A DNA stretch of 64,000 bases from Planctomycetota bacterium (GCA_020351025.1 CP070728.1:1827510-1891509); one strand, 5' to 3'; positions 310 to 63,475 are shown, numbered from the stretch's first letter. Notes: generated by a model not told the origin, from the sequence alone. Numbers and translations are program-made.

Positions 310-617
310 AAAACAATGAGGCAAAAAAAGGAGACTTGGGCATCTAACTAATTACAAAATCGTCACCCTGTCTCCTTGCCGCGAGTTACTTTATCTCTTG
401 TCTGGCCAAACCGCCCAACTCGCAACAATTATAATATACAGAAAACTATAAAGTCTGTCAATATGTACTGTGTATAATGGCAACCTTGGCATCTGATTAA
501 GATGACCGCAGTAAAGCACAAAGCATAATATGGTTAAGGTATCATGACAAAGGGGCTGGCATACTATCCAAATAGAGAAATAGGCAAAGAAGCTCTCTGC
601 CACCTATTGTACAGCAA

Positions 618-48006: not shown

Positions 48007-51000
48007 TCATACGTTCTCGTGGATTGTAGCTTCTTTTATCCAGCAGTACAAGACCGGCACAACAAGCATAGTAAGTACCTCAATGGTCATTCCTCCAAAA
48101 GAAGGTATAGCCATCGGTACCATAATGTCAGAGCCCCGCCCTGTTGATGTAAGTACTGGGATAAGTGCAAGGACTGTTGTAGCAGTTGTCATAAGACAGG
48201 GTCGGATTCTGCGTCTCCCGGCTTCAACTACAGCCTGACGAACACGGTCGATGCCCTTGGGTTTTTTGCTGCGGAATGACTGTTCCAGATACGTACACAT
48301 TACAACGCCGTCGTCCGATGCAATTCCAAACAGTGCAAGAAAACCCACCCATACAGCAACGCTCAGATTAATCGGATGCACTTGGAAAAGCTGGCGCATA
48401 TTGACGCCGAACACACTGAAGTCAAGAAACCACGGCTGTGCATAAAACCATATCATCAAGAACCCCCCTGCCCAAGCGACGATGATTCCTGAAAAGACCA
48501 ATCCACTCGTTGTTACCGAGCGAAACTGGAAATACAGAATTATGAATATGATGAAAAGCGCCAAAGGTATGACTATCAGAAGTGTCTTTTGTGCGCGAAC
48601 CTGATTTTCATACGTCCCAGCGAAGGTGTAACTGACACCCTCAGGTACAAGAAACTGTCCTGCGGCAATTTTTTCGTCCAAATACTGCTGGCATTGTTCA
48701 ACAACATCGACCTCGGCATACCCGGTTTTTTTGTCAAATACGACGTATCCAACAAGAAATGTGTCCTCACTCTTTATGGCCTGCGGCCCGCGGATATAGC
48801 GAATCTCAGCTATCTGTATAAGCGGTATCTGCGCCCCATCGGCAGCTGGAACCAAGATTCTGCCGAGGGTTTCAATCTGGTCTCGCAGTTCCCGCATATA
48901 CCTGACTCTGACGGGGTATCGCTCGCGTCCTTCAACAGTAGTGGTAATGCGTCTACCGCCTATAGCAACTTCAATAACATCCTGAACCTGGCGAACGTTA
49001 ATACCATATCGAGCTATAGCATCACGATCTATATCAATCTCAATGTAAGGCTTGCCGACGATGCGGTCGGCTATTACTGTGGCGGGCTCAACAGAGGGGA
49101 CTTCTTTCAAAAAGCGTTCAATCTCCAAACCGACACGCTCGATTGCATCGAGGTCCGGGCCTTTGACCTTTACCCCCATTGGTGCGCGCATTCCACTTTG
49201 GAGCATAACTATCCGTGCTGCGATAGGCTGGAGCTTCGGTGCGCTGGTGGTGCCAGGGATTTCACCGGTCTGGACTATTTCGTTCCAGATGTCATCGGGA
49301 CTTTTAATATGGTCACGCCATTGTCTAAACGGTCGACCATAGTCGTCACATATGAGCTGGCCATTCTCATCACGAACAAATTCTCTTTTTTTCTTATCAT
49401 AACGGAAACGAAGGCGCCGGCCATCCTTATCAGTGATATACTCGGACTTGTAATTAATAACGGTTTCGACCATTGATATCGGTGCAGGGTCAAGAGGGGA
49501 TTCAACTCGGCCAATCTTACCAATTACAGACTCTATCTCGGGAATTGACTGAAATGCAGCATCCTGCTTTTGTAATATATCCAGGCACTCTCCAATAGAG
49601 GCGTGAGGCATAGTGGTTGGCATATAGAGAAATGAGCCTTCATCCAAAGGCGGCATAAACTCTTTGCCAAGCCCCCGCCATATCATTATGCCCGCAACGA
49701 CAAGGCAGGCTGGTATTAATAAAAACTTCCCTTTGTTGGCCAAACACCATATTAAAATCCGCGCGTAAAATTTTTGAAAAATCCTGAAAAATAGCAGCAA
49801 ACCGCCAATAAGAAAGCCCACAAATATAAGGTTACGAACGAGGCCCTTAGCCGGCCCAAGCGGCAACCAATGACCGGTAAGTATTACGCCAACGAGGACA
49901 ATTGCGGCTACGTTAGTAATTAAAGGCATAGAGCTGTTTACTTTCTCCGGAATGCGAGTGCGAAGAAGATGATAAAGTCCGATTGCGGCGATAACAACTC
50001 CTATCCACCAAGCAAGCGAAAGAGCTGCTATGACAGCAGCGACAATTAATAACCCGCCCAGAATGTATCGCTTTATCTTTTTGACAATGGCTTTTCTTGT
50101 GAAAAGCACGTGAGCAGCGGGCGGGATGATAGTTAGTGCAACTATTAGCGAAGCAATCAAGGCAAAGGTTTTTGTAAAGGCAAGAGGCTTAAAGAGCTTT
50201 CCTTCAGGCCCTGTCATTGTAAAGACCGGCAAAAAGCCAACGACGGTAGTCAGAACTGCAGTTAAAACGGCACTTCCAACTTCGCTGGCAGCGCGGAAAA
50301 CAACCTCGAGCTTGTTATCGTCGGGCCCTGCCTCATCGAGGTGTTTTAAAATGTTCTCAGAAATCACTATCGCCATATCAACCATAGTGCCGATGGCTAT
50401 CGCGATGCCGGAAAGAGCCACAATGTTGGCATCGACACGAAAGACCTTCATTGCGATAAAACACATCAGTATCGCTAAAGGCAGCAAGGAGCTTATGAGG
50501 ATTGAGCTTCTCAGATGCATGACCAAAACGATGACTACGATAATAGTAACCAGTACTTCGTCTGTAAGGGCTGTATTTAATGTACCTAAGGTTTCGTAAA
50601 TAAGTCCGGTGCGGTCATAAAACGGCACAATCATTACCTGTGAAACCGTCCCGTCAGGTAAAGTCTTCTTGGGAAGCCCTGGCGAAATCTCTTTAATTTT
50701 GGCTTTTACATTCTTAATGGCTTCAAGTGGGTTATAGCCGTAGCGTACAACAACCACACCACCAACAGCCTCAGCTCCGCCCTTGTCCAGTGCCCCCCGC
50801 CGCAGCGCAGGCCCATATGAAACTTTCGCTACATCTTTAATGTAAATTGGGACATTCTCATTTACCTTTATAACTGTTCGTTCTATGTCTGACAAATTCT
50901 CGATAAATCCAAGCCCGCGGATTACATATTCAACCTTGTTTATTTCTATCGTTCGCGCGCCAACATCGATATTAGAAGCTTTCACAGCCTTGAATATGTC

Positions 51001-51696
51001 ACCGAGCCCAACTTTGTAGGCGCGCATCGCATCGGGGTCGACATCTATCTGATATTCTCTGGTATAGCCCCCTACCGAAGCTACTTCACTGACCCCCCGG
51101 GCACCGAGTAAACTGTATCGGACATACCAATCCTGGATAGTACGCAGCTCATCCAAATCCCACCCGCCGGTGGGGTTGCCGCTGCCGTCGCGTCCTTCAA
51201 GGGTGTACCAGAAAACTTGTCCCAAGGCGGTGGCATCAGGCCCCAATGCGGGCTGGACCCCCTCAGGAAGCGTTCCTGCAGGCAAGGAATTTAGCTTCTC
51301 AAGAACCCTGCTGCGTGACCAGTAAAACTCTGCATCTTCTTCAAATATTATGTAAATGCTTGAGAAGCCAAAAAACGAGTAGCTGCGCACCGTCCTTACG
51401 CTGGGGATACCAAGTAGTGATACGGTCAGCGGATATGTAATCTGGTCCTCTACGTCTTGAGGAGAACGCCCCATCCACGCGGTAAAAACTATCTGCTGGT
51501 TTTCACCGATATCGGGAATGGCATCGACAGGGACGGGTGCACGCGGCAGCCCCCAGAGCTCCCAATCAAAGGGGGCAACTCCAACGCCCCACCCGACAAC
51601 AAGCACCACAAACAGCCCAACTACCAACTTGTTATCAAGGCAAAACCGTATTATTCTGTCTATCCAAGACCTTTCCCGGTTGCTTGATGCATCCAT
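48007..51696 (-). CDS. heavy-metal-efflux RND permease (CusA/CzcA family), enlarged 1229-aa form
   Basis: The N-terminal region aligns to CusA (AIPDIGENQQIVFTAWMGRSPQDVEDQITYPLT...YWSRSRVLEKLN). 12 canonical TMs plus extra hydrophobic segments between TM6 and TM7. Confidence 0.9.
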   Translation of the reverse strand: MDASSNRERSWIDRIIRFCLDNKLVVGLFVVLVVGWGVGVAPFDWELWGLPRAPVPVDAIPDIGENQQIVFTAWMGRSPQDVEDQITYPLTVSLLGIPSVRTVRSYSFFGFSSIYIIFEEDAEFYWSRSRVLEKLNSLPAGTLPEGVQPALGPDATALGQVFWYTLEGRDGSGNPTGGWDLDELRTIQDWYVRYSLLGARGVSEVASVGGYTREYQIDVDPDAMRAYKVGLGDIFKAVKASNIDVGARTIEINKVEYVIRGLGFIENLSDIERTVIKVNENVPIYIKDVAKVSYGPALRRGALDKGGAEAVGGVVVVRYGYNPLEAIKNVKAKIKEISPGLPKKTLPDGTVSQVMIVPFYDRTGLIYETLGTLNTALTDEVLVTIIVVIVLVMHLRSSILISSLLPLAILMCFIAMKVFRVDANIVALSGIAIAIGTMVDMAIVISENILKHLDEAGPDDNKLEVVFRAASEVGSAVLTAVLTTVVGFLPVFTMTGPEGKLFKPLAFTKTFALIASLIVALTIIPPAAHVLFTRKAIVKKIKRYILGGLLIVAAVIAALSLAWWIGVVIAAIGLYHLLRTRIPEKVNSSMPLITNVAAIVLVGVILTGHWLPLGPAKGLVRNLIFVGFLIGGLLLFFRIFQKFYARILIWCLANKGKFLLIPACLVVAGIMIWRGLGKEFMPPLDEGSFLYMPTTMPHASIGECLDILQKQDAAFQSIPEIESVIGKIGRVESPLDPAPISMVETVINYKSEYITDKDGRRLRFRYDKKKREFVRDENGQLICDDYGRPFRQWRDHIKSPDDIWNEIVQTGEIPGTTSAPKLQPIAARIVMLQSGMRAPMGVKVKGPDLDAIERVGLEIERFLKEVPSVEPATVIADRIVGKPYIEIDIDRDAIARYGINVRQVQDVIEVAIGGRRITTTVEGRERYPVRVRYMRELRDQIETLGRILVPAADGAQIPLIQIAEIRYIRGPQAIKSEDTFLVGYVVFDKKTGYAEVDVVEQCQQYLDEKIAAGQFLVPEGVSYTFAGTYENQVRAQKTLLIVIPLALFIIFIILYFQFRSVTTSGLVFSGIIVAWAGGFLMIWFYAQPWFLDFSVFGVNMRQLFQVHPINLSVAVWVGFLALFGIASDDGVVMCTYLEQSFRSKKPKGIDRVRQAVVEAGRRRIRPCLMTTATTVLALIPVLTSTGRGSDIMVPMAIPSFGGMTIEVLTMLVVPVLYCWIKEATIHENV

Positions 51697-51723
51697 TCCT
51701 TCACTCGTATAATTGTCGGACCT

Positions 51724-52026
51724 TTAGTCCTTAAACTGGGGCAACTTAGCAATATACTTCTCGGGGTCGGCCTTGAACTTCTCCGCGCAGCCCGAACAGC
51801 AAAAATAAACTTTTTTGCCTTTGTATTCCGTGTAGATATCCTTGTTGATGGCTTCTCCCATAATCGGGCAAATTGTCTGCTCGAACACAGCAGAAGTAAT
51901 CTCATTGCTTTCCACTGGTGCAGCTGGTTCTGACTTCTTCTTGCAGCCATTGAACACAAACATCACGACTAACAAGAGACCTGCCAGAATGATTATCGTG
52001 CTCAATTTTTTCATTTGGCCATTCAT
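51724..52026 (-). CDS. YHS-domain lipoprotein (putative periplasmic metal-binding protein)
   Basis: Lipobox FNGC. YHS/TRASH motif CPIMGEAINKDIYTEYKGKKVYFCCSGCAEKFKADPEKY. Confidence 0.8.
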   Translation of the reverse strand: MNGQMKKLSTIIILAGLLLVVMFVFNGCKKKSEPAAPVESNEITSAVFEQTICPIMGEAINKDIYTEYKGKKVYFCCSGCAEKFKADPEKYIAKLPQFKD

Positions 52027-52062
52027 TTTATTTACCTTTCAAAATATAGTTTCAGTTTCGAT

Positions 52063-53553
52063 TTAATGAACATGGCCACTGTGACCTATGGAAATTTCTT
52101 CTCCTTTTGGGTTCATCATACTGGGCTTTGCCTGGATCTGAAGTGCCGAGTCAATCTTGAAGTTGCCGTGTGTTACGACAATTTCTCCCTCAGCTAATCC
52201 GGATTCTACGATATAATAGTCCTCTGTCCTTGGGCCAAGCATTATCTCGCGACCCTCATAAGTTGGCTTCTCTGCCGGCACTTGAACATAAACGACAGCG
52301 CGTTTTCCTGTAATCAAAGGGGCTGATGCAGGGATAACCAAAGGTGCTTCGCTGGGTGTATCAAGCTTGACATAGCCAAGGGATTCAGTGGTTACCAAAT
52401 CCATACCGCAGATATCACAACTGCCGGCTTTTGCTTTTACAACATCCGGGTGCATAGGACAAATCCATTTGCCGGCCATTTCAGGGTCCATAACCATACC
52501 ACTGCCAGCGATATTTGAGTAAGCGACAGCTCTGACAAACATTTCGGGTTTTAGCTTGCCCTCGGGATTACCAACATTAACTCGCAGCTTAACGGTCCTT
52601 GTTTTGACACCAACAATGGGGTCGATAAACGTAATTGTGCCCTTGAAAGTCTCTCCGGGATAAGCCTGAGTTGTAAATTCAACTTCCTGGCCATATCGAA
52701 CCCAGGGCAGGTCGGATTCGTAAGCATCCAATTTAACCCACAGGCGCGAGAGGTCCGCGATGGTGTAGATATGTGTACCTGTATCAACATACATACCTTC
52801 GCTAGCGTTTTTATGAATGACGACGCCACCAATAGGTGCGTAGATTGTTATGTGCTCGACCGGCACACCGGTTTTTTCGATGTCACCAATCTGCTGTTGT
52901 GTCAGACCGAGCAGCCGCATTTTTCCCCTAGCTGCTTCAAGAGTTGCCAGTATCGACCTGTTGATAAGTTCCGACCCCCCTGGCTTTATATTCCCTGCGG
53001 CCTTAACTGCCTGCAGCAGTTCCGCCTGTGCACTGATTAATTGCGGGCTGTAGAGGTAAACCATATGGTCGCCCTTGTTGACGGTAATTCCGGTGAAATC
53101 GACATAGAGGCGGTCGATTCTGCCGGGCACCCAGGCTGTTATGTTTTTGACGCGCGTTTCATCGTAATCTATTTTGCCAACCATTCGTATCTCGGCGGTA
53201 ACAAATTTTCTCACCACCAGCGTAGTTTCAATCTCCATCAACTTTATGGCTTCTTCGGAAAAAGAAATTTGTCTTTCTTCAATAAGGCCGCTGGTAGATA
53301 CAGGAATCAAATCCATAAAACAAATTGGGCACTTGCCCAGCTTGGGCTGGCGAATCTGTGGGTGCATTGAACAGGTCCACTCCTGTGAAACAGCCTGCTG
53401 TACGAGATGTTCGTGCTCTGCAGTAGCTGGAGGTTCTTGCAAAAGCGACCTAAAGAAATAACCTGCAAAAAGAGCTACGACCACCAAGATTGTGCTCTTT
53501 AACTTTCGACCGCTAAGAATCGATTTGACACTTTTTATACCCATATCAGCCAC
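52063..53553 (-). CDS. RND periplasmic adaptor (CusB-like) carrying two heavy-metal-binding finger motifs
   Basis: WTCSMHPQIRQPKLGKCPICFMDL and WICPMHPDVVKAKAGSCDICGMDL, with an MFP barrel-sandwich core (IYAPIGGVVI, VKLRVNV). Confidence 0.85.
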   Translation of the reverse strand: MADMGIKSVKSILSGRKLKSTILVVVALFAGYFFRSLLQEPPATAEHEHLVQQAVSQEWTCSMHPQIRQPKLGKCPICFMDLIPVSTSGLIEERQISFSEEAIKLMEIETTLVVRKFVTAEIRMVGKIDYDETRVKNITAWVPGRIDRLYVDFTGITVNKGDHMVYLYSPQLISAQAELLQAVKAAGNIKPGGSELINRSILATLEAARGKMRLLGLTQQQIGDIEKTGVPVEHITIYAPIGGVVIHKNASEGMYVDTGTHIYTIADLSRLWVKLDAYESDLPWVRYGQEVEFTTQAYPGETFKGTITFIDPIVGVKTRTVKLRVNVGNPEGKLKPEMFVRAVAYSNIAGSGMVMDPEMAGKWICPMHPDVVKAKAGSCDICGMDLVTTESLGYVKLDTPSEAPLVIPASAPLITGKRAVVYVQVPAEKPTYEGREIMLGPRTEDYYIVESGLAEGEIVVTHGNFKIDSALQIQAKPSMMNPKGEEISIGHSGHVH

Positions 53554-53701
53554 CTGTGCCTTAGTTACTATACTATTTCCGTAGGATTTCTGTTCGATAT
53601 AAATGTTGTGTTATTAGCATCATCAATGGTTTCTTCCTTCTTATTGGCGCTTTTAATTTGCCCCCACAAACGATTCCTCCAAACAGCGAACAAAACTCGA
53701 T

Positions 53702-54025
53702 TTAGCCAAACAAAACTAAAACCAATATGCCGTGTGTAAAGCCCAAGATGACAGAAATTATTGCAAGAGTCAGGTGGAGCTTAAGGAACCTCCGGCCGAG
53801 TTTTCTGCGAAACAGACCCGTCAATAAAGTCGCACTAACAAAGGTCAAGGTGGCTATTCCCAATGGCTCGACCATAAAAAACACCGAGAAAGATCTACCA
53901 TTCTCGTCCTCCTGGCTGGCCTGTTCTCCAGCTAAAACGTTTTTCAGAAACCAATTGTTCAAAGCAAAGCCTGAAAAGATGATTATCACCAGAATCAGCA
54001 ACATATGAGATTTCATTTTTAGCAT
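53702..54025 (-). CDS. hypothetical small membrane protein (3 predicted TM, two His in the last helix)
   Basis: 107-aa ORF between the OMF and MFP genes. Hydrophobic segments and LKLHLTLAIISVILGFTHGI. Confidence 0.5.
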   Translation of the reverse strand: MLKMKSHMLLILVIIIFSGFALNNWFLKNVLAGEQASQEDENGRSFSVFFMVEPLGIATLTFVSATLLTGLFRRKLGRRFLKLHLTLAIISVILGFTHGILVLVLFG

Positions 54026-54057
54026 CCCATTAAGAGAAATTTCACAAAAAAGTTTAT

Positions 54058-55371
54058 TTACTCTTCCGCAGACTCTCTTGCATCTGTTGTCAGCTCCCTA
54101 CCGACAAGCATCTCAAGCTCAGCGAGTTTTTGCTGATTGTCCGTTATTGCCCTCTCATATTGCAACTGAAAATTAAGAACGGTTCGCTGAGCATCTATTA
54201 AACTTAGAAAATCTATAGTACCGGCCCGGTATGCGGTTTCAGATGCCTCGAGCAGTTCCTCAGCCTTTAGTACAAGCACATCGCTATACAGTTTTATTTT
54301 CCTGCTGCTATCTTCAAGTTCATAAAGAACCTGCTCAGCACGCGCGACAATTGTATTTTCGGCTTCGGTCCGCTGCTGCTCGGTCTTTCTAAGAACCGAC
54401 TTTGCCTGCTGCTCTGCAGCTTTATAGCTTTCACTCCAGATCGGCAGATTCATTGAAAACATCAAGATGACCGGGTCCCGACCGCTATCTGACACACCCT
54501 GGCTGACGGCGCCTCCTGTTTCAATCCAGTCGAGTCCGACTCCAACATCGGGGTAGAACTGCTTCTTTGCCAGTTCAAGTTTGCTCTTGGCTGCTGTTAC
54601 TTCAAAGTCAATCGCTGCAAGCTCAGGATTTATCTGCTTCAGTAGCGTAATTATCTCTTGTCGCCCTACGACTACCCGTCTTAGCTCCTCCTTTACCGGC
54701 CACGGCAACAGCTCAGAACTTTGACGGTTAAGGATGGAATTAAGCTTGGCCACGATAGGCTTTCTGAGTTCCTCCAAGCTCTTGAGCACGTCCTCAAGCT
54801 TGGCAAGCTCCACCTGCGCACGTATTACATCAGGGTGAGTTCCAGCAGCTGCCATATATCTTGTTCGCGTAACCTCCTCAAAATGCTTCAACAACTCAAG
54901 GTTATGCTTTGCTATTTTCACGGCGGAGGCAAGATACAGGTATTCATAAAACGCCTCTTTGACCTGCCAAAACAGCTTAAGCTTTTCTGCCTCATACCTC
55001 TTTCTTGCTGCCTTTGCCTCAGCAGATGCTGCATCTGTTCTTGCTTCAATCTTACCGAACCACGGAAATACCTGCATTATGCCGAACTTGTGTCTCTGGG
55101 GCCCGACTCTGGTTTCAACCTCTCTGATAAAATAGCTGTAGGTAAACTTAGGGTCCGGCAAAGCCTGAGCCTGGGGGATTTTCTCTATGGCGGCTTTCCA
55201 TCGCTCAAAGGTAGCCTTAAGGCTGGCATTATTAAGGGCTGAGTATCGCAAGTAATCCTGCAATTGCCGCGGGGTATTACTGTCGGATGGCTTCTGGGAG
55301 ATACCAGCGAAACAACTCGTTCCGATTAAAGTTAGTACAATCGCACTGAAAAGAAGTACACTCCCCTTCAC
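54058..55371 (-). CDS. TolC-family outer membrane factor of the metal efflux cluster
   Basis: Signal peptide and duplicated OMF repeat pattern (LRYSALNNASLKATFERWKAA..., LSLIDAQRTVLNFQLQYERA). Confidence 0.85.
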   Translation of the reverse strand: MKGSVLLFSAIVLTLIGTSCFAGISQKPSDSNTPRQLQDYLRYSALNNASLKATFERWKAAIEKIPQAQALPDPKFTYSYFIREVETRVGPQRHKFGIMQVFPWFGKIEARTDAASAEAKAARKRYEAEKLKLFWQVKEAFYEYLYLASAVKIAKHNLELLKHFEEVTRTRYMAAAGTHPDVIRAQVELAKLEDVLKSLEELRKPIVAKLNSILNRQSSELLPWPVKEELRRVVVGRQEIITLLKQINPELAAIDFEVTAAKSKLELAKKQFYPDVGVGLDWIETGGAVSQGVSDSGRDPVILMFSMNLPIWSESYKAAEQQAKSVLRKTEQQRTEAENTIVARAEQVLYELEDSSRKIKLYSDVLVLKAEELLEASETAYRAGTIDFLSLIDAQRTVLNFQLQYERAITDNQQKLAELEMLVGRELTTDARESAEE

Positions 55372-55592: not shown

Positions 55593-55664
55593 GGGCCCGT
55601 AGCTCAGCGGCAGAGCAGTGGACTCATAATCCATTGGTCGTAGGTTCAAATCCTACCGGGCCCA
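55593..55664 (+). tRNA. tRNA with CAT anticodon (elongator Met or lysidine-modified Ile2; not initiator)
   Basis: Cloverleaf: GGGCCCG acceptor, anticodon arm GTGGA-CTCATAA-TCCAT, T arm GTAGG-TTCAAAT-CCTAC. No 3xGC anticodon stem and no 1:72 mismatch. Confidence 0.9.
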
Positions 55665-55713
55665 GTAATAGTTAACGGTTGATAGTTCTTAGTGAAAAGC
55701 AGAAACTTGTTTT

Positions 55714-55786
55714 GGGCGATTAGCTCAGCTGGCAGAGCAGCTGACTCTTAATCAGCCGGTCGCAGGTTCGAATCCTGCATCGCCCA
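55714..55786 (+). tRNA. tRNA-Lys (CTT)
   Basis: Acceptor GGGCGAT/ATCGCCC, anticodon arm GCTGA-CTCTTAA-TCAGC, T arm GCAGG-TTCGAAT-CCTGC. Confidence 0.9.
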
Positions 55787-55921
55787 TTCTCATACAAAAA
55801 GAAATTATTTGGGTAATGTTCGAATCTTACGAATGTCTACAAATATTCTTACCATTCGGTTAAAAACCCTTCCAACTACATTTCAAAAGACGAGCCGATT
55901 GATTCGGCAATTCAAACCTTC

Positions 55922-55950
55922 TTGCCCTCGACGTTTATATTTGCTAAAAT
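55922..55950 (+). promoter_or_regulatory. candidate promoter TTGCCC-17-TAAAAT for the 56054-63257 operon
   Basis: TTGCCC at 55922-27, 17-nt spacer, TAAAAT at 55945-50. Confidence 0.35.
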
Positions 55951-56053: not shown

Positions 56054-58198
56054 ATGTTAGTGAGTCAGCGGTGTAAAAATCTTAAGTTTCTGTTTCTGGC
56101 AATTGTAATTGTTCTGACAATACCCACTCAAGCACAGGCGTATATTGGGCCGGGAGCCGGCTTTGCGGTGGTGGGCTCATTTTTGGTGATGTTTACCGCC
56201 CTTCTGTCGGCGCTGTTGGCGTTATTTACCTGGCCGATGCGCTATCTTATTCGAGCAATTCGCGGTCGACATGCTTTTGCTCGTAGTAGGGTTAAGAAAT
56301 TTGTGATACTTGGGCTGGATGGTATGGATTATGCAATGACAGAGAAAATGCTCTCAGAAGGCAAACTTCCCAATCTGGTGAAGCTTCGCGACCAGGCTTG
56401 TTTCAAGCCGCTCGCAACAACCATCCCTACCATTTCACCGGTTGCTTGGTCATCGTTTCAAACCGGTTCTAATCCTGCTAAACACAATATCTTTGATTTT
56501 CTCACACGTGATAAGCGCAATTATCAGCCGCGCCTAAGCTCAGTGGATATCAGAGGACCGCGACGAAAAATAACTCTGGGCAAGTACCAATTTCCTCTCG
56601 GCAAAGCTGATATTCGTCTTCTCCGCAAAGGAAAGCCATTTTGGAAGACGCTCGGCGAGCATGGAATATTTAGCAGTGTCATCCGCGTGCCGATTACATT
56701 TCCGCCAGAGAAGTTCCACGGCGTGCAACTCTCAGGCATGTGCGTTCCTGACCTGCGCGGCACACAAGGGATGTTTTCCTTTTACACCACAAAAAAAGAA
56801 GACAAAGTGGAGCACACCGGCGGAGAAAATTTTTACGTTACGAAGAACGGCAACAGTGTAAAGGCGGAGCTTATCGGTTCAACGAACCCCCTGCGTAAAG
56901 ATAACAGCATTTTAAAATGTCCCTTTGAAGTCACTATCAAAGATGAGAACTCAGCAGATATCAAGATTGGCAGGGATAGTTACACACTCGAAAAAGACGT
57001 ATATACCAATTGGATAAAAGTCAGCTTCAGAGCTGCTCCTGGTATAAAGGTTTATGGTATATGTAAGTTTCTTTTGCTAAGTGCTGCTCCCGAATTTGAG
57101 TTGTACGTTACACCCATTAACATCGACCCCGAAAAACCCGCTATGCCCATTTCGCACCCTGCGATTTACTCCACTTATCTTGCCAAGCGGCAAGGGTCTT
57201 TTGCAACGTTAGGTCTGGCTGAAGACAGCTGGGCTCTTAACGAAAAAGTTCTAATCGACAATAGTTTTTTACATCAATGCATTGAGACAGACCAAGAGCG
57301 TGAGAAGATGTTTTTTGATGCCCTTGACAAAATCAAACACGGCCTGTGTGTTTGCGTTTTTGATGGTACCGACCGCATCCAACACACTTTCTGGAGAGAC
57401 ATAGATGAGGAGCATCCTGCCAACCGGGAACAGGAGCAAAGACCACAGCGTAACATTATTGAAGAACTATATCAACGTATGGACATTTTAGTCGGCAAAA
57501 CGCTGGCTAAGTGCAAGGGGAAAGATACTATTTTGATGATTATCTCAGACCACGGATTTAACACATTTCGCCACGGTGTTGACTTAAACCGCTGGCTCGA
57601 AGAAAACGGCTATCTAAAGGTTAAGGACAGCCAGCGCAACAAAAAGCATCTTGAGTGTGTTGACTGGTCGAAAAGCCGAGCTTTCGCTATCGGTTTGGCT
57701 GGTATTTTTCTTAACCTAAAGGGCAGGGAAGCGCAGGGGATAGTAGAACCGGGTGCCGAGGCTGCCCAACTGCGCAATGAAATAGCTAAGAAGCTGATAG
57801 AGTTAAACGATGCTGAACATGGCCAGAGGGCAATCAAACAGGTTTACAATGCAATGGAAGTTTACCAAGGGCCATACAAGAATGAAGCACCCGATTTGAT
57901 TGTAGGTTACAACCGGGGTTATCGCGCATCATGGGAGACTGCGATTGGTCAGGTAACTGATAAAATCTTCCACGATAATACCAAAGCCTGGAGCGGCGAC
58001 CACTGCATTGACCACAGTCTTGTTCCGGGTGTTCTTTTCTGCAACCGGGCGATTACCACAGAGCATCCCAGACTTATGGATATAGGGCCGACAGTCCTGG
58101 ATATGTTCGGCGTCGCAGTACCGAGGTATATGGATGGAAAACCACTGGCAGTGACTGATGTTGATGGCAATAAGAACCGCAAGAAACAGGCCAAATGA
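56054..58198 (+). CDS. alkaline-phosphatase-superfamily protein (type I phosphodiesterase/NPP-like), membrane anchored
   Basis: FVILGLDGMDY metal-site Asp, TTIPTISPVAWSSFQTG nucleophile region, ISDHGF and WSGDHC distal metal motifs. N-terminus has two hydrophobic segments, then an R/K-rich stretch. Confidence 0.8.
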   Translation: MLVSQRCKNLKFLFLAIVIVLTIPTQAQAYIGPGAGFAVVGSFLVMFTALLSALLALFTWPMRYLIRAIRGRHAFARSRVKKFVILGLDGMDYAMTEKMLSEGKLPNLVKLRDQACFKPLATTIPTISPVAWSSFQTGSNPAKHNIFDFLTRDKRNYQPRLSSVDIRGPRRKITLGKYQFPLGKADIRLLRKGKPFWKTLGEHGIFSSVIRVPITFPPEKFHGVQLSGMCVPDLRGTQGMFSFYTTKKEDKVEHTGGENFYVTKNGNSVKAELIGSTNPLRKDNSILKCPFEVTIKDENSADIKIGRDSYTLEKDVYTNWIKVSFRAAPGIKVYGICKFLLLSAAPEFELYVTPINIDPEKPAMPISHPAIYSTYLAKRQGSFATLGLAEDSWALNEKVLIDNSFLHQCIETDQEREKMFFDALDKIKHGLCVCVFDGTDRIQHTFWRDIDEEHPANREQEQRPQRNIIEELYQRMDILVGKTLAKCKGKDTILMIISDHGFNTFRHGVDLNRWLEENGYLKVKDSQRNKKHLECVDWSKSRAFAIGLAGIFLNLKGREAQGIVEPGAEAAQLRNEIAKKLIELNDAEHGQRAIKQVYNAMEVYQGPYKNEAPDLIVGYNRGYRASWETAIGQVTDKIFHDNTKAWSGDHCIDHSLVPGVLFCNRAITTEHPRLMDIGPTVLDMFGVAVPRYMDGKPLAVTDVDGNKNRKKQAK

Positions 58199-58217
58199 TA
58201 CAAAGGAGCGCCAAATA

Positions 58218-60257
58218 ATGCCCAACACAGATAAAGGCAAGCTTAATCGAAGAGAGTTTCTAAAGCGGTCAGCCGTCACGGCAGCAGCGGTTAGCACAGG
58301 CTTCGGCATCAAGCGGGTCTATGCGGCAAAGAAAAAACGCCTAGGTACAGGAAAGAAGGTGATTGTAATCGGCATTGACGGTATGGACCCGCGTCTGTCC
58401 GAACAGATAATGAATGCTGGGAAGCTGCCGAATTTCGATAAGCTTCGCAAACTGGGGGGATTTCACGTGCTGGGCACAAGCATCCCACCGCAAAGTCCCG
58501 TGGCTTGGGCCAACTTTATAAATGGTGCCGGGCCGGGTTCACATGGAATCTTTGACTTTATTCACCGACATCCCGAAAAACAGTGTGTTCCATTTTTCGC
58601 TATGGCCGAAACCGTTGAAGGCGAAGGCTATTGGGAAATAGGAAACCACAAGCTGCAATTGGATTTCTGGCCCTTCAATCACAAACGCACTGCTACCCTG
58701 CTGCGGCGCCAAGGAACACCCTTCTGGGATTATCTCAATGAAGCAGATATCTGCTCGACCTTTTACAATTTGCCTTCAAACTACCCACCGAGTGAATCCA
58801 AGCATGGCTACCATCAGTGTTTAGCAGGTATGGGAACACCTGACTTGCTGGGCACTTATGGAACCTATCAACACTTTGCTGAGGATGGACCGCTCCTAAC
58901 TAAGGATGAAGGCGGCGGCAAACGCTCCATGCTTTTCTTCGAGAATGAAACAGCACAGGCAAAATTAATTGGACCACGAAACAATTTGCTCAAAATACCT
59001 GAACCAGCTGTTATCAACTTCTCTGTGTATCGTGATATCGGGGCCAAAGCAGCTGTTATCGAAATCCAGAAACATCGAATCGTTCTCAAAGAAGGACAGT
59101 GGAGCCGCTGGGTAAAGCTGGATTTCGAAATGTCAACACCCGCATTTATGCCCAATAAACACATCCGCGGAATATGCCGTTTCTATCTGCAGGAGGTAAG
59201 CCCTAACTTCAGGTTGTATGTAAGTCCCATCAATGCTGACCCGTCTGACTCAGCTTTAAAGCTTACTGAGCCACCGGAGTTTATTAAAGAAATTTCAAAT
59301 AGATTGGAATTATTCTACACTACCGGATTTCAGGAAGACCATAAGGCATTATCAAACAAAGTATTCACTGATGAAGAATATCGCACCCAGGCCGATTATG
59401 TACTCAAGGAACGGCTTAACCTGCTTAACTACGCTCTCGAAAACTATGATGATGGTCTTCTTTTCTTCTATTTTTCCAGCACTGATTTGCAGGCCCATAT
59501 GTTCTGGTGGGACACAGATGAAGAACATCCGACACGCTCCGCCGACGACGCTATAAAGTACTTCGACCACCTTAAGGGTATTTATCGTAAATTGGATTCG
59601 GTCGTGGGAGATATTCTGAAGCGATATAGTGACAAGGCCACCATTATTGTGATGAGTGACCACGGCTTTGCAAATTTCAAAAGGCAATTTAACCTTAACA
59701 GCTGGCTGCGTGAAAATGGTTATATTCAACCAACTGATAGTACTTCAATCTTACGTGACGTCGATTGGTCGAAAACCAAAGCATATGCATTGGGTATAAA
59801 CGGTTTATACCTCAACCTCAAAGGACGCGAGCGAGATGGTATCGTAGAGGCCGGCCAAGAACGCGAAAAGCTTATTGAGGAATTGATAAGCAAACTCGAA
59901 GCAGTTAAAGATGTCAACGGCAGAAGTGTTATTCGCAAAGTCCACCGCACAGATAAGGCATATAGCGGTCCTGCAACTGAACTTGCTCCGGATATGATTG
60001 TAGGCTACCATCGTGGCTACCGGGCGTCCTGGGCCACCTGTCTCGGAGATATGACAACAGAGGTGCTGCTGGACAACGACTCTGCCTGGAGTGCAGACCA
60101 TTGTGCCGATGCTTCAGAAGTGCCGGGAGTTATCTTCAGTAATAAACCCATTGGTGCTGGTGCTCCGTTTCTAATAGATGTAGCTCCGTCGATTCTAACA
60201 GAATTTGGATTAAAAATCCCGTCCTCAATGGCGGGTAGAAACATCTTCACGACATAA
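58218..60257 (+). CDS. alkaline-phosphatase-superfamily protein, paralog of 56054-58198, with twin-arginine signal
   Basis: NRREFLKRSAVTAAAVSTGFG Tat motif. VIVIGIDGMDP, TSIPPQSPVAWANF, MSDHGF and WSADHC. AAGGAG RBS before ATG 58218. Confidence 0.8.
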   Translation: MPNTDKGKLNRREFLKRSAVTAAAVSTGFGIKRVYAAKKKRLGTGKKVIVIGIDGMDPRLSEQIMNAGKLPNFDKLRKLGGFHVLGTSIPPQSPVAWANFINGAGPGSHGIFDFIHRHPEKQCVPFFAMAETVEGEGYWEIGNHKLQLDFWPFNHKRTATLLRRQGTPFWDYLNEADICSTFYNLPSNYPPSESKHGYHQCLAGMGTPDLLGTYGTYQHFAEDGPLLTKDEGGGKRSMLFFENETAQAKLIGPRNNLLKIPEPAVINFSVYRDIGAKAAVIEIQKHRIVLKEGQWSRWVKLDFEMSTPAFMPNKHIRGICRFYLQEVSPNFRLYVSPINADPSDSALKLTEPPEFIKEISNRLELFYTTGFQEDHKALSNKVFTDEEYRTQADYVLKERLNLLNYALENYDDGLLFFYFSSTDLQAHMFWWDTDEEHPTRSADDAIKYFDHLKGIYRKLDSVVGDILKRYSDKATIIVMSDHGFANFKRQFNLNSWLRENGYIQPTDSTSILRDVDWSKTKAYALGINGLYLNLKGRERDGIVEAGQEREKLIEELISKLEAVKDVNGRSVIRKVHRTDKAYSGPATELAPDMIVGYHRGYRASWATCLGDMTTEVLLDNDSAWSADHCADASEVPGVIFSNKPIGAGAPFLIDVAPSILTEFGLKIPSSMAGRNIFTT

Positions 60258-60300
60258 ACGAAACTTTTATAGCACGATAGATAATAAGGGAGTTAAACAA

Positions 60301-60486
60301 ATGGCAAAGATTAAGATTGATTCGAATCTATTTGAGCGTGTGAAAAAAGCAACTGAAACTGCGGGATACAGCAGCGTGGAGGAGTTTATTACCCATATCA
60401 TCGAAAAGGAGCTTGCCAAATTCGAAAGTGACCAAACAGACGAAAAAGTAGCGGACCAGCTTCGCGGGCTGGGGTATATCGAATGA
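60301..60486 (+). CDS. small ribbon-helix-helix-like protein (tentative)
   Basis: 61 aa. KIKIDSNLFERVKKATETAGYSSVEEFITHIIEKEL fits a beta-alpha-alpha RHH pattern. Acidic linker, C-terminal LRGLGYIE. ATGA overlap with the next gene. Confidence 0.55.
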   Translation: MAKIKIDSNLFERVKKATETAGYSSVEEFITHIIEKELAKFESDQTDEKVADQLRGLGYIE

Positions 60487-61328
60487 TGCATTTCTTAACC
60501 CAAATCATAAATTGGATTAACGTACCGCTAAATGCTGCAGGTAAATTTTTGTCAATTCCGGTTTGCTCACTGCCGGGGTGGTTATCGAACACATTAATTT
60601 CAGCGGTAACAGGAGTGGTTCTACTAATTATTTTCAAATACACTTCTAACCAAAAAGCCATCGGGCGGGTCAGGGACAATATCAAGGCTGATATGCTTGC
60701 CTTGAAACTGTTCAAAGACAGTATTACAGTGACATTACAATCACAGGGCCGAGTTTTTAAGGGAGCTTTTCAGCTTTTGTTTCATGCTGTCAAACCAATG
60801 CTGGTGATGATTATTCCGGTATCTTTACTGTTGGCACAGATGGGCACATGGTACCAGTCGCGGCCGTTGCTGCCTGGTGAAGAGACAGTTGTGACCTTGC
60901 GGTTTAACAGTGACATCGAAGGGCCTTGGCCTAAAGTTGACATTGAACCCACCACAGCAGTTGACGTAACATCAGGGCCGGTTAGAATTTTCAGTAAAAA
61001 GGAAATATGCTGGAAAATAAGAGCACTTGAAGGCGGATACCACCGTATAATTGTTCAAGTAGGCCAGCGGCAGATTGATAAGGAACTTGCAATCGGCGAT
61101 GGTTTTATGCGGATAAGCCCCGAACGACCTCGTTGGCACTGGGCCGATATTCTGCTTTATCCCGGGGAGAAACCTTTTGGTCCCGATTCCGTGGTCCAGT
61201 CCATCAGCATTGAGTATCCGCAGCGGCCGTCCCGAACAAGTGGCACCGACTGGTGGCTGGGGTATTTCTTTGTTGCCTCGCTGGTCTTTGCCTTAATATT
61301 CAAGCCGTTCCTAAAGGTAAGGATATAA
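60483..61328 (+). CDS. hypothetical membrane protein (2 N-terminal TM, extracytoplasmic beta-rich domain, C-terminal TM)
   Basis: ORF translationally coupled on both sides. Hydrophobic segments AVTGVVLLIIF, MLVMIIPVSLLLA and WWLGYFFVASLVFALIF. Confidence 0.6.
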   Translation: MMHFLTQIINWINVPLNAAGKFLSIPVCSLPGWLSNTLISAVTGVVLLIIFKYTSNQKAIGRVRDNIKADMLALKLFKDSITVTLQSQGRVFKGAFQLLFHAVKPMLVMIIPVSLLLAQMGTWYQSRPLLPGEETVVTLRFNSDIEGPWPKVDIEPTTAVDVTSGPVRIFSKKEICWKIRALEGGYHRIIVQVGQRQIDKELAIGDGFMRISPERPRWHWADILLYPGEKPFGPDSVVQSISIEYPQRPSRTSGTDWWLGYFFVASLVFALIFKPFLKVRI

Positions 61329-63257
61329 ATGGATAAAAGGCCGAAAAAATTTTATATCCTCTTCATTAGTGTGGTTTTGATACTGGTTACCCTTTCAGTT
61401 TTTTGGCAAGTACGCTCTCACGAGTTCATATCCTTTGACGATAACATGTACATTTACAATAACAGTCAGGTAACAGCCGGCCTGACACGAGAGAGCCTTG
61501 CCTGGGCATTCACCACAACACACGCCTTTAACTGGCATCCGCTGACATGGATGTCACATATGCTGGACTGTGAGCTTTACGGTTTGGACGCCGGCGGTCA
61601 TCATTTTACGAACGTGCTGTTTCATATAGCCAACACCGTGCTGCTGTTGCTGGTACTGAATCGTATGACACGAAATCTGTGGCCCAGCGTATTTGTTGCT
61701 GCTGCTTTTGCCCTGCACCCGCTTCATGTGGAGTCCGTCGCCTGGGCATCGGAACGCAAGGATGTGCTTAGCACTTTTTTCTGGATGCTCACGATGTGGG
61801 CTTATGTTCGTTACGTTGAACGTCGAGAGATTAAAAGATATATTGTAATAATATTGGTCTTCACTCTTGGCCTTATGGCCAAGCAGATGCTGGTTACACT
61901 GCCGTTTGTGCTGCTTCTTTTAGACTACTGGCCCCTTGGGCGGCTCAAATTTGAAAAACAATGTTTCCGCAATTCCGCTCGGGAATGTATTGTAGAAAAA
62001 CTGCCTCTTTTGCTGCTGTCTGCGGTTGCCGGCATAGTAATATATCTTGTCCAGCATGCTGTGGATATCGTAAAATCTACAAAAGACTATCCCCTGTCTG
62101 CGCGTATTACAAATGCGCTAGCAGCTTATATAACATATATCGGCAAGATGCTGTGGCCTACCCGCTTGGCAATCTTCTATCCGCATCCGGGCAAAGATTT
62201 GCCGGTATGGCAAAGTGTCGGAGCAGCTCTATTATTGGTACTTATAACAGCAGCTATATTCTGGAAGATACGTCGGCGTCCCTATCTTGCTGTCGGCTGG
62301 CTGTGGTACTTAGGCACCCTTGTACCCGTTATTGGGCTGGTCCAGATCGGGTTGCAGGCTCTCGCTGACCGATACACCTATATTCCCCTGATTGGTTTAT
62401 TCATGATTATTGCATGGGGCACTGCCGATATTCTTGCTCGGCTGCGTTATCGAAAAGTAGTCCTTTCCATAACTGGGCTACTATTGCTTTTAATTATGGC
62501 AGTTATGTCCTGGTTTCAAGTCAGTTACTGGCGCAATGGTATGACACTGTATGGGCATGGAACGGAAGTGGTTCCAAATAATACATGGACACGCTATTAT
62601 TTGGGGGAAGAGCTTGTTCTCAGGGGCCGACTCGATGAAGCTATTAAACATTTTAAAGAATCGCTGCGAATCGAGCCGGATTGTGCCTATACGAAGTATT
62701 TTCTGGGAAGCGTACTTCTCCGACAAGGTAAAATTGACGAGGCCATAAAAGTTTATGAAGAACTCCTGCCGAAACTGCCTGACAATATAGCTGCCGCCGA
62801 TATGCCGGATGTTAAACTTGTCAGGAAGGGTAAGCTGGGGGAAATTATCAACTTGTACACCAAAGGACACGTCAATTTGGGTATAGCACTTAGCCAACAA
62901 GGTAAACTTGATGAAGCTATCAAGCACTATACTGAGGCACTGCGAATTAGGCCGGACTTCGCCGTGGCACATACCAACTTAGGACACGCTCTGGCTCGCC
63001 AAGGCAAGCTTGAGGAAGCTATTACACACTACGCCGAGGCATTGCACCTCAACCCAACCTCAACCGAAGCTCACTACTACTTGGCTTATGTTTTGTATGA
63101 ACAGGGCAAGATTAATGAGGCTATTACTTTCGCTGAAAAGGCATTAGTTCTGGCTGAATCCTCAAATCAGAAAAAAATAGCAGAGGAAATTCGAAAAAGC
63201 CTGCGTTTATATAAGGATAAAGCAGACGCCCCATCCATCGAGTCTTCTGCAAAATGA
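61329..63257 (+). CDS. TMTC-like GT-C-fold glycosyltransferase (DUF1736/PMT_2-like membrane domain) with C-terminal TPR repeats
   Basis: N-terminal FISFDDNMYIYNN acidic motif, WHPLTWMSHMLD, GHHFTNVLFHIANT and FALHPLHVESVAWASERKD, about 11 TM helices, then 5-6 TPRs (EAIKHYTEALRIRPDFAVAHTNLGHAL...). Confidence 0.75.
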   Translation: MDKRPKKFYILFISVVLILVTLSVFWQVRSHEFISFDDNMYIYNNSQVTAGLTRESLAWAFTTTHAFNWHPLTWMSHMLDCELYGLDAGGHHFTNVLFHIANTVLLLLVLNRMTRNLWPSVFVAAAFALHPLHVESVAWASERKDVLSTFFWMLTMWAYVRYVERREIKRYIVIILVFTLGLMAKQMLVTLPFVLLLLDYWPLGRLKFEKQCFRNSARECIVEKLPLLLLSAVAGIVIYLVQHAVDIVKSTKDYPLSARITNALAAYITYIGKMLWPTRLAIFYPHPGKDLPVWQSVGAALLLVLITAAIFWKIRRRPYLAVGWLWYLGTLVPVIGLVQIGLQALADRYTYIPLIGLFMIIAWGTADILARLRYRKVVLSITGLLLLLIMAVMSWFQVSYWRNGMTLYGHGTEVVPNNTWTRYYLGEELVLRGRLDEAIKHFKESLRIEPDCAYTKYFLGSVLLRQGKIDEAIKVYEELLPKLPDNIAAADMPDVKLVRKGKLGEIINLYTKGHVNLGIALSQQGKLDEAIKHYTEALRIRPDFAVAHTNLGHALARQGKLEEAITHYAEALHLNPTSTEAHYYLAYVLYEQGKINEAITFAEKALVLAESSNQKKIAEEIRKSLRLYKDKADAPSIESSAK

Positions 63258-63475
63258 ATCTGGACTCAAATTGAAGTTATATTCTGCATCTTTTTCATTG
63301 TCTCAAGGCGAGGAATCAAGCTTTTCCAGTGGCTTTTGCTTTCGAAACTACTTCTGAAGGTGCGAATATAATTTTCTTTCAATAAACTGCCATAATTGTT
63401 TTGAGAAGTCGCACTATGGTGTGCTGCTTATCAATATTTGGTGGAGGACCTGAATTTTCCTGCAGTTGACGAAAG

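Follow-up and report, generated by a model that had tools for sequence, protein, structure and literature searches.

A conserved four-gene module of paired alkaline-phosphatase-family enzymes, a small protein and a DUF106-like membrane protein in Planctomycetota and Desulfobacterota

Introduction

In a 64,000-nucleotide stretch of the genome of a Planctomycetota bacterium (GCA_020351025.1, CP070728.1:1827510-1891509; hereafter the window), four co-directional genes form a unit that is conserved in Planctomycetota and Desulfobacterota. They encode two alkaline-phosphatase-family paralogues (AP1 and AP2), a protein of 61 amino acids (S61) and a membrane protein of 281 amino acids (M281), and are followed in the window by the gene of a 642-amino-acid transferase, which combines a glycosyltransferase membrane domain of the GT-C type with tetratricopeptide repeats (GT-C/TPR). 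The tentatively favoured reading, held at somewhat less than an even chance, is that of a membrane module with one enzyme on either side, whose substrate would be a phospho- or sulfo-ester bound to the membrane and which is supplemented by lineage-specific decorating enzymes; its architecture is solid, and we infer its chemistry. An earlier interpretation of the window, made from the DNA alone (the sequence-only reading), had regarded all five genes as one operon, a candidate envelope-modification system.

A four-gene unit in two phyla

Loci for comparison were sampled by an alignment scan with relatives of M281, one genome being taken per species, which yielded 80 loci. An exact-protein look-up added L001 and L002, the latter being the same stretch as L004, so that 81 distinct species-level loci were available. 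They belong to Phycisphaerae/Sedimentisphaerales, Pirellulales, Isosphaeraceae, Gemmataceae, Planctomycetaceae and several Desulfobacterota, and the presence of the genes was scored by tblastn with the five window proteins. The order and orientation AP1-AP2-S61-M281 is constant wherever the contig extends far enough. Among the 61 loci with at least 4.7 kb of upstream sequence, which were treated as informative, the four-gene core is intact and collinear in 50, is found as split matches in 8 more and is without S61 in 3. The idea that five genes travel together thus holds for four of them, in two phyla, and fails for GT-C/TPR, which lies near the core in one of the 81 loci. The orthologues of AP1 and AP2 in the species-level loci are 57-79% and 58-79% identical, respectively, compared to approximately 36% across the paralogues, which indicates that the duplication is old and that both copies have been maintained. 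In a neighbour-joining tree of M281, a Planctomycetia clade stands apart from a Phycisphaerae-like clade, and sequences from Desulfobacterota are nested at three or more places within the latter, one of them adjoining the window sequence. This nesting argues for a transfer of the module between phyla as a unit, unless the contigs concerned were mis-binned.

All five open reading frames (ORFs) of the window are real genes and not chance ORFs, since each has hundreds to thousands of homologues, and their coordinates and tight junctions in the sequence-only reading were confirmed to the nucleotide. Profile scans revealed no specific Pfam or NCBIfam family for S61 or M281, PADLOC gave no match except generic TPR models, and no description of this operon or module, or of bacterial members of DUF106, was found in the literature. 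The earlier statement that no system of this composition has been described therefore stands, while all components come from known superfamilies. Two further candidate functions were discarded: a defence system, as PADLOC returned the generic TPR models only, and a toxin-antitoxin pair of S61 and M281 (a ribbon-helix-helix (RHH) gene overlapping a membrane-protein gene), as the pair never occurs apart from AP2 in the 81 loci.

Catalytic features of AP1 and AP2

Both paralogues match the Phosphodiest family PF01663 (AP1 with 99.5 bits and AP2 with 111 bits at a cut-off of 23) and are 37% identical to each other, in agreement with their earlier description as paralogues of about 700 residues of the nucleotide pyrophosphatase/phosphodiesterase (NPP) type. 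Among 15 orthologues of AP1, the residues D89, N145, D440, H444, D499, H500, D649 and H650 are invariant, and position 128, the nucleophile, is occupied by Ser, with one Thr. Likewise, D54, S93, D423, H427, D481, H482, D627 and H628 are conserved in 16 orthologues of AP2, with all metal ligands and the serine of the sequence PQSPVAW being invariant. The roles of these residues in the metal site and as nucleophile are presumed from motif analogy with NPP. As judged by these motifs, AP1 and AP2 are NPP-clade metalloenzymes of the AP superfamily with a complete predicted two-metal site and a Ser/Thr nucleophile. Relatives carry source annotations such as 'alkaline phosphatase family', 'nucleotide pyrophosphatase' and 'predicted AlkP superfamily phosphohydrolase/phosphomutase'.

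Searches among solved structures gave a less specific picture. With phmmer, no solved structure was found for AP1 at E<=0.01, and a profile of its orthologues produced marginal matches to the AP superfamily only (best E approximately 1e-3). Foldseek, applied to a low-confidence AlphaFold2 model of AP1, ranked PafA, the NPP of Xanthomonas (Xac NPP), SPAP, ENPP6/5/1/7 and PhnA first, with E-values of approximately 5e-6 and TM-scores of only 0.2-0.4. The presence of the lipid-active NPPs ENPP6 and ENPP7 among these matches was counted in favour of a module acting on a membrane-bound ester.

Predicted location of AP1 and AP2

The N-terminus of AP1 consists of a signal-like helix, the nonapeptide YIGPGAGFA, a transmembrane helix and a strongly basic segment (Table 1). 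Among the orthologues, the signal-like helix usually ends in A-x-A and the nonapeptide is invariant in all; apart from AP1, no ORF of the loci or the window contains it. Following the positive-inside rule, the catalytic domain would be cytoplasmic and close to the membrane, regardless of whether the first helix is cleaved or not, and AP1 appears to be tethered to the cytoplasmic face by a very short linker. If the signal-like helix were cleaved, the mature protein would start with a Tyr exposed at the periplasmic face; that this N-terminal Tyr could act as a sulfate acceptor is speculation.

AP2 features a twin-arginine motif (Table 1) and reaches 19.0 bits with the TIGR01409 model of twin-arginine translocation (Tat) signals, above the cut-off of 16.7, and 17.6 with the Pfam model TAT_signal, below the cut-off of 22.7. 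Its catalytic domain starts approximately ten residues past the signal region. AP2 would hence be a Tat substrate that is exported in the folded state and located at the periplasmic face, and the two paralogues are predicted to occupy opposite faces of one membrane. This prediction, as well as the Oxa1-superfamily identity of M281 presented in the following, goes beyond the sequence-only reading.

M281, a putative bacterial member of the Oxa1 superfamily

The description of M281 as a membrane protein with a beta-rich domain was borne out by three hydrophobic segments and a confidently modelled beta-sandwich: the AlphaFold2 model has a predicted local distance difference test score (pLDDT) of 69.6 overall, of approximately 85 in the beta domain and of approximately 50-75 in the helical part. 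A profile of close relatives gave the archaeal YidC-like protein MJ0480 (5c8j) as best match in the PDB (E=0.0058), and a profile of 49 diverse members gave it as the single match (E=3.2e-8, 36.3 bits). This match is collinear over the first transmembrane segment (TM1), the coiled coil and TM2, and weaker over TM3. Moreover, 6 of the 49 diverse members individually match PF01956 (EMC3_TMCO1), with a best E-value of 2.2e-5, and several relatives are labelled 'DUF106 family' by the Joint Genome Institute. In an exhaustive search, the family comprised 2299 clusters at 50% identity. M281 itself is matched exactly by the product of locus tag JSV82_08375, from a Planctomycetota metagenome-assembled genome (contig of 2.27 Mb), which identifies the source of the window. 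The link to Oxa1 hence comes from sequence profiles, as the structural route showed the Ig domain only. It is concluded from these profiles that M281 is probably a bacterial representative of the Oxa1 superfamily (DUF106/Ylp1/EMC3 branch) whose outward loop between TM2 and TM3 harbours an Ig-like domain. The basic hairpin and the Ig domain would give it surfaces on both sides of the membrane. In earlier work, DUF106 was assigned to archaea and eukaryotes, its clients possessing few helices and translocated regions of small size, and members of the Oxa1 superfamily handle small polar segments across the bilayer (PMC5868721). YidC has also been described as a lipid scramblase (PMC11997395).

S61 and its association with AP1

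An alignment of 20 orthologues of S61 shows an N-terminal strand-helix-helix, an acidic linker and the invariant C-terminal sequence LRGLGYIE (nt 60460-60483). The conserved pattern is MAKIKID / LYDRAKKAAEAAG / YSSVEEFI with an invariant G22, and the secondary structure is read from the sequence pattern only. The earlier label 'RHH-like' received weak support: the top profile match in the PDB is the RHH domain of NikR (2bj1, E=0.015), whereas the Pfam family RHH_1 is reached with E=0.064 and 13.7 bits, below the cut-off of 20.5. These matches weakly support a cytoplasmic protein of the RHH type.

S61 is missing only in L041, L054 and L070, that is, in those loci in which AP1 is absent or damaged (Table 1) and AP2 and M281 are intact. 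The loss of S61 along with damage to AP1, and the retention of the other two genes, suggest that S61 works with AP1 and M281 with AP2. AP1 could be encoded elsewhere in these three genomes.

The motif L-x-x-L-G-Y-[IVLMF], which forms the tail of S61, occurs 52 times in the 1028 ORFs of the loci, compared to 2.2 occurrences expected from shuffles. Several short neighbours of the sulfatase fold (L009, L011, L019, L025 and L027) end in this motif, and it is also found at the junction of sulfatase domain and TPRs in long sulfatase-fold proteins, in a segment of the ASST-like proteins (L062/L079) and at the C-terminus of a CysD-like protein (L023:4558-5370). AP1 and AP2 contain the internal look-alikes WLEENGYL and WLRENGYI, respectively. 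The motif may represent a shared helix-strand docking unit; a function of the tail as a TPR-binding peptide is speculation.

The GT-C/TPR gene, a lineage-restricted accessory

GT-C/TPR was earlier called 'TMTC-like', which holds for its domain composition, with PMT_2 (31.4 bits, cut-off 26.1) and TPRs (TPR_1, 135 bits) above cut-off, and fails for the TMTC-specific DUF1736, which was not detected; at E<=1, the membrane domain matched PMT_2 alone. The membrane domain has no match in the PDB by sequence, and the full-length search was swamped by TPR matches.

The single occurrence near the core among the 81 species-level loci is on a Desulfobacterium scaffold (L027), 6 kb downstream and with 53% identity. 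Given its absence from the other 80, the conserved unit comprises four genes and not five. Four lineages are closely related to the window (L083, L085/L086, L087 and L089). L089 shows the same abutment of M281 and GT-C/TPR as the window, with 88% identity; L085/L086 possess an orthologue with 68% identity and a different PMT_2 gene between this orthologue and M281; L083 and L087 have no GT-C gene. The TAAATG abutment is accordingly seen in the window and L089 only. More distant homologues, with 64% identity, are located in unrelated neighbourhoods, and the family numbers at least 8000 members, of which several are often found on one contig. A distant homologue is part of a cluster of UDP-glucose dehydrogenase, GT-C-TPR, GT2 and again GT-C-TPR genes (L091:7001-12058), which fits a family using polyprenyl-phosphate sugars from a GT2 enzyme, in a typical context independent of the module. 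GT-C/TPR is a recent, lineage-restricted accessory at the 3' end of the module and should not be annotated as a member of the system.

Neighbouring genes and the link to sulfur

All neighbouring ORFs of the loci were clustered, and the 116 nearest neighbours were subjected to a Pfam census. This revealed Sulfotransfer_3 in 22 and Sulfotransfer_1 in 17 genes (overlapping, as both match the same genes), Sulfatase in 11, TPR in 7 and Arylsulfotransferase in 7, and nothing else was recurrent. In about 26 loci, the gene directly 3' of M281, in the same orientation, encodes a sulfotransferase of approximately 190 residues (ST190); 31 loci contain a homologue of it at any position. ST190 matches Sulfotransfer_3 as well as Sulfotransfer_1, its profile being closest to cytosolic sulfotransferases (SULTs) dependent on 3'-phosphoadenosine-5'-phosphosulfate (PAPS). 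Aryl-sulfotransferases resembling arylsulfate sulfotransferase (ASST; PF05935, 85 bits) precede AP1 directly in 17 loci. Proteins of the sulfatase fold, in many cases fused to TPRs, are encoded in 16 loci, CysD in 5 and CysN in 4. Altogether, 41 of the 53 loci of at least 12 kb contain one or more genes for a sulfotransferase, ASST, sulfatase-fold or Cys protein. The fullest sulfur-linked locus, from a Gemmata metagenome-assembled genome (MAG; L079:3536-13565), consists of ASST-AP1-AP2-S61-M281-ST190 and a SulP/STAS sulfate permease, all co-directional. A unit built around the GT-C enzyme is not supported. What recurs beside the core is not glycosyltransferases but sulfotransferases, ASST-like proteins, sulfatase-fold/TPR proteins of the Thr type, CysD/CysN and SulP.

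True sulfatases carry the formylglycine signature C/S-x-P-x-R. The sulfatase-fold neighbours carry T-L-P-S/A-H in its place and hence look like enzymes of the phospho-transfer type; that they are true sulfatases is unlikely. In all four close-relative lineages, one or two convergent sulfatase-fold/TPR genes lie between the module and the TrkA_C gene. In the window, this interval (63258-63475) measures 218 nt only, with no sulfatase-fold/TPR gene there or within the 64 kb.

Organization of the gene cluster and its surroundings

Positions and characteristics of the features are compiled in Table 1. AP1 ends with a TGA at 58198, and an AAGGAG is located 8 nt ahead of the ATG of AP2 at 58218. The gap of 43 nt between AP2 and S61 contains a GGGAG before the ATG at 60301, the stop of S61 and the start of M281 share the ATGA at 60483-60486, and the TAA of M281 directly abuts the ATG of GT-C/TPR (TAAATG, 61326-61331). 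An alternative ATG at 58158 would extend AP2 by 20 codons (58158-58217), overlapping the 3' end of AP1. The start at 58218 is favoured by the AAGGAG site and by all orthologues starting just ahead of the twin-arginine motif.

Table 1. Features of the module and its surroundings. Positions are nucleotides of the window unless given as amino acids (aa) or with a locus handle.
Feature	Position	Strand	Remarks
AP1	56054-58198	+	ORF, 714 aa
AP1 signal-like helix	aa 12-29		ends in AQA
AP1 YIGPGAGFA	aa 30-38 (56141-56167)	+	invariant
AP1 transmembrane helix	aa 39-60		hydropathy
AP1 basic segment	aa 61-82		ten Arg/Lys in 22 residues; catalytic domain directly after
AP2	58218-60257	+	ORF, 679 aa
AP2 twin-arginine motif NRREFLK	aa 10-16		R11 and R12 invariant in 16 orthologues
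S61	60301-60486	+	ORF, 61 aa
M281	60483-61328	+	ORF, 281 aa
M281 TM1	aa 33-51		hydropathy
M281 Lys/Arg-rich helical hairpin	aa 52-97		cytoplasmic (predicted)
M281 TM2	aa 98-116		hydropathy
M281 Ig-like beta-sandwich	aa 134-243		periplasmic insert (predicted), conserved
M281 TM3	aa 255-279		hydropathy
GT-C/TPR	61329-63257	+	ORF, 642 aa
GT-C/TPR membrane domain	aa 1-~400		PMT_2/GT39-like; FISFDD after TM1
GT-C/TPR repeats	aa ~420-612		TPRs
Promoter-like element	55922..55950	+	TTGCCC-17 nt-(TG)TAAAAT; ~100 nt 5' of AP1; consensus scan
tRNA-Met(CAT) and tRNA-Lys(CTT)	55593-55787		directly 5' of the module
Metal-efflux operon	48007-55371	-	CusA-like resistance-nodulation-division (RND) pump (1229 aa), CusB-like membrane-fusion protein (496 aa), outer-membrane efflux protein (437 aa)
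ORF antisense to S61	60267-60491	-	74 aa
Module without S61 in L041	L041:289-5703		AP1 absent, S61 absent
Module without S61 in L054	L054:4246-10846		AP1 internally deleted and fused in frame to AP2 (1109-aa ORF); S61 absent
Module without S61 in L070	L070:5710-10843		AP1 frameshifted; S61 absent

A promoter-like element lies upstream of AP1. Taken alone, it does not exceed the shuffled background; the approximately 120 nt around it are conserved with the orthologous upstream region of L085, and it is likely that the transcription unit starts here. Scans for promoters and terminators yielded counts at background level, this L085-conserved site being the only one of use. An Rfam scan of the leader found no riboswitch or other RNA, only the two tRNAs, and leader repeats considered as RHH operators were dismissed as short chance-level matches. 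The 74-aa antisense ORF over S61, which was grouped with other reverse-strand ORFs in a crude clustering of the locus ORFs, is treated as a by-product of sense-strand conservation and not as a gene.

The cluster is bounded upstream by the two tRNA genes, beyond which a divergent CusCBA-like operon follows, and downstream by a convergent TrkA_C gene. A tRNA-Lys-like sequence is found at the equivalent position in L087 (approximately 3350-3600), which indicates that the synteny predates the insertion of the GT-C gene. The CusCBA-like operon, which diverges from the tRNA genes and has no relation to the module, includes small ORFs at 51724-52026 and 53702-54025, and its CusB-like protein carries heavy-metal-binding domains.

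Proposed mechanism and alternative explanations

According to the tentatively favoured reading, the substrate of the module would be a membrane-bound phosphoester or sulfoester, i.e., a lipid head group or a lipid-linked intermediate. AP1 would form or trim the ester on the inner leaflet, and the Oxa1-like hydrophilic groove of M281 would let the polar group cross the membrane or present it on the other side, where AP2, docked to the Ig domain of M281, would hydrolyse or transfer it on the outer leaflet. S61 might couple the state of AP1 to the transcription of the operon. Finally, lineage-specific accessories would add sulfate, phospho- or glycosyl groups to the substrate or to the final acceptor. 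In most genomes these would be enzymes of sulfuryl transfer (the PAPS-type ST190 and ASST-like proteins, in some loci with CysDN or a SulP permease), in others Thr-type sulfatase-fold/TPR enzymes, and in the window presumably the GT-C/TPR enzyme, dependent on a polyprenyl-phosphate sugar. A more specific version, in which M281 would be the transmembrane hub of a group-transfer machine instead of a general insertase, its groove passing a phospho- or sulfo-ester head group from AP1 to AP2, is considered unlikely.

Several points weigh against this reading. The topology is based on hydropathy, the positive-inside rule and signal motifs only. The AlphaFold2 model of AP1 is poor (pLDDT 58.5, shallow alignment), and the structural matches derived from it would indicate membership of the superfamily only. 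For M281, Foldseek returned generic Ig-like domains only (SbsC, filamin) and no Oxa1-family structures, the helical part of the model being of low confidence, and PF01956 is matched neither by the window protein nor by 19 close relatives. The joint loss of AP1 and S61 concerns three MAG loci, two of which have possible assembly errors. Furthermore, 12 of the 53 long loci are without a sulfur-type neighbour, and there is no sulfur-transfer gene within the 64 kb of the window, so that the sulfur link is an association in other genomes. The action of AP1 and AP2 on lipids is a proposal, with soluble nucleotides or esters as alternative substrates.

One alternative explanation is nutrient scavenging. 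AP2 would here be a secreted phosphodiesterase or phosphatase that frees phosphate (or sulfate) from organic esters of the environment, and AP1 would treat imported compounds likewise, with S61 and M281 as incidental helpers. The neighbours of the sulfatase-like and ASST-like types would then reflect a polysaccharide-degrading lifestyle. A Tat signal on an AP-family enzyme is indeed typical of Pho-type scavengers, the phosphate monoesterases PafA and SPAP are among the best structural matches (of the low-confidence AP1 model), and sulfatase-fold as well as DUF1501 genes are common around the module. Scavengers, however, are usually single genes with patchy linkage, whereas here four genes are collinear across two phyla and include a membrane-tethered, inward-facing paralogue and an insertase-like protein. 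As the commonest neighbour is a cytoplasmic PAPS-type sulfotransferase, joined by CysDN, the surroundings are biosynthetic and not degradative, and the sulfatase-fold neighbours without formylglycine motif are improbable sulfatases. Scavenging is regarded as unlikely. In another explanation, AP1 and AP2 would hydrolyse adenosine-5'-phosphosulfate (APS), PAPS or the by-product 3'-phosphoadenosine-5'-phosphate (PAP) at the two membrane faces and thereby support or limit local sulfation by the neighbouring sulfotransferases. NPP-clade enzymes cleave bonds of the nucleotide pyrophosphate type, Xac NPP and ENPP1 are among the structural matches, and PAPS-type sulfotransferases, CysD/CysN and a SulP permease show a strong association with the module. 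Still, many carriers including the window have no nearby sulfotransferase or Cys gene. As PAPS and PAP are compounds of the cytoplasm, there would also be no explanation for an invariant periplasmic AP2 or for the Ig domain of M281. Such sulfonucleotide housekeeping is decidedly unlikely.

The position of M281 in the DUF106/Ylp1 branch of the Oxa1 superfamily, together with the anchor of AP1, an invariant hairpin with a very short translocated loop, would also suit a dedicated insertase or chaperone for this hairpin, which has no role in chemistry while the enzymes act independently. M281 is kept, however, beside AP2 in L041, which has no AP1, as well as in L054 and L070 with their damaged AP1 genes; an insertase of AP1 does not need a conserved periplasmic Ig-like domain, and AP2 takes the Tat pathway and not an insertase. 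A function of M281 solely as insertase of the AP1 anchor was downgraded for the persistence of M281 and AP2 where AP1 was lost, and a mere biogenesis factor is given little credence. Least credible is the five-gene pathway with GT-C/TPR as central transferase and the AP enzymes adding or removing phospho-groups on the same envelope target. It can draw on the tight TAAATG junction in the window and L089, on the orthologues in the neighbourhood in L085/L086 and L027, and on the use of lipid-linked donors at the outer face, which is typical of both GT-C and Thr-type sulfatase-fold enzymes and generally known for the ArnT/PMT and EptA/LtaS families. Against it stand the absence of the gene from 80 of the 81 loci and from L083 and L087, and the occurrence of other members of its family of at least 8000 in unrelated contexts; the abutment itself is probably derived, since in L085 a further gene separates the orthologue from M281. 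As a general model, this pathway is largely refuted by the co-conservation test.

Significance

If the hub function of M281 were true, it would represent a previously unknown route by which sulfate or phosphate esters are carried across the inner membrane to the envelope. A large bacterial family of the DUF106/EMC3 type within one operon offers a natural context in which to study non-insertase roles of this fold. A catalytically intact pair of AP paralogues, predicted on opposite faces of the membrane, would be unusual for the superfamily and suggests a two-step trans-membrane ester chemistry. Besides, the consistent association with sulfotransferases of the PAPS and aryl-sulfate types suggests a pathway of sulfation or of phosphate/sulfate exchange that has yet to be characterised. 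Its carriers, Planctomycetota that abound in sediments and Desulfobacterota that reduce sulfate, belong to groups of importance for marine sulfur and carbon cycling.

Comparison with known systems

The closest enzymatic relatives are those of the NPP/PafA/PhnA clade (Xanthomonas NPP, ENPP1-7, PafA and phosphonoacetate hydrolase), which share with AP1 and AP2 the family PF01663, the bimetallo ligands and the Ser/Thr nucleophile and provide the best matches of the low-confidence AP1 model. In contrast to them, AP1 and AP2 comprise approximately 700 aa with a beta-rich insert of 250 residues and form an obligate pair of paralogues, of which one is predicted to be tethered to the membrane facing inward and the other to be Tat-exported. 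EptA/LptA, LtaS, OpgB and BcsG are likewise membrane-anchored enzymes of the AP superfamily that use a Ser/Thr nucleophile. At the outer face of the inner membrane, they transfer phospho-head groups, a chemistry resembling the role proposed for AP2. Nevertheless, they have the sulfatase fold PF00884 instead of PF01663 and multi-helix N-terminal membrane domains, and they lack a cytoplasmic paralogue; PF00884/TPR proteins occur beside the module as optional genes of their own, distinct from AP1 and AP2.

M281 shares the core of three transmembrane segments and the basic cytoplasmic hairpin between TM1 and TM2 with archaeal Ylp1 (MJ0480) and eukaryotic EMC3, TMCO1 and GET1, from which it differs by its bacterial origin, by the Ig-like domain of approximately 110 residues in the outward TM2-TM3 loop and by the specialised operon that encodes it, in contrast to the gene of a general insertase. 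The TMTC/PMT-type O-mannosyltransferases of the GT-C class resemble GT-C/TPR in the succession of PMT_2 and TPRs and in an acidic DD motif after TM1, and relatives of GT-C/TPR are named 'protein O-mannosyl-transferase' or 'glycosyltransferase family 39' in some sources. Unlike TMTC, GT-C/TPR shows no detected DUF1736 and no PDB match by sequence, and it stands outside the conserved module. Finally, AssT of E. coli and the PAPS-dependent cytosolic sulfotransferases resemble the ASST-like and the SULT-like 190-residue proteins which are frequent neighbours of the module and absent from the window. To our knowledge, neither paired NPP-type enzymes nor a DUF106 protein form part of any known sulfation system, and it is by these two components that the four-gene module is set apart.

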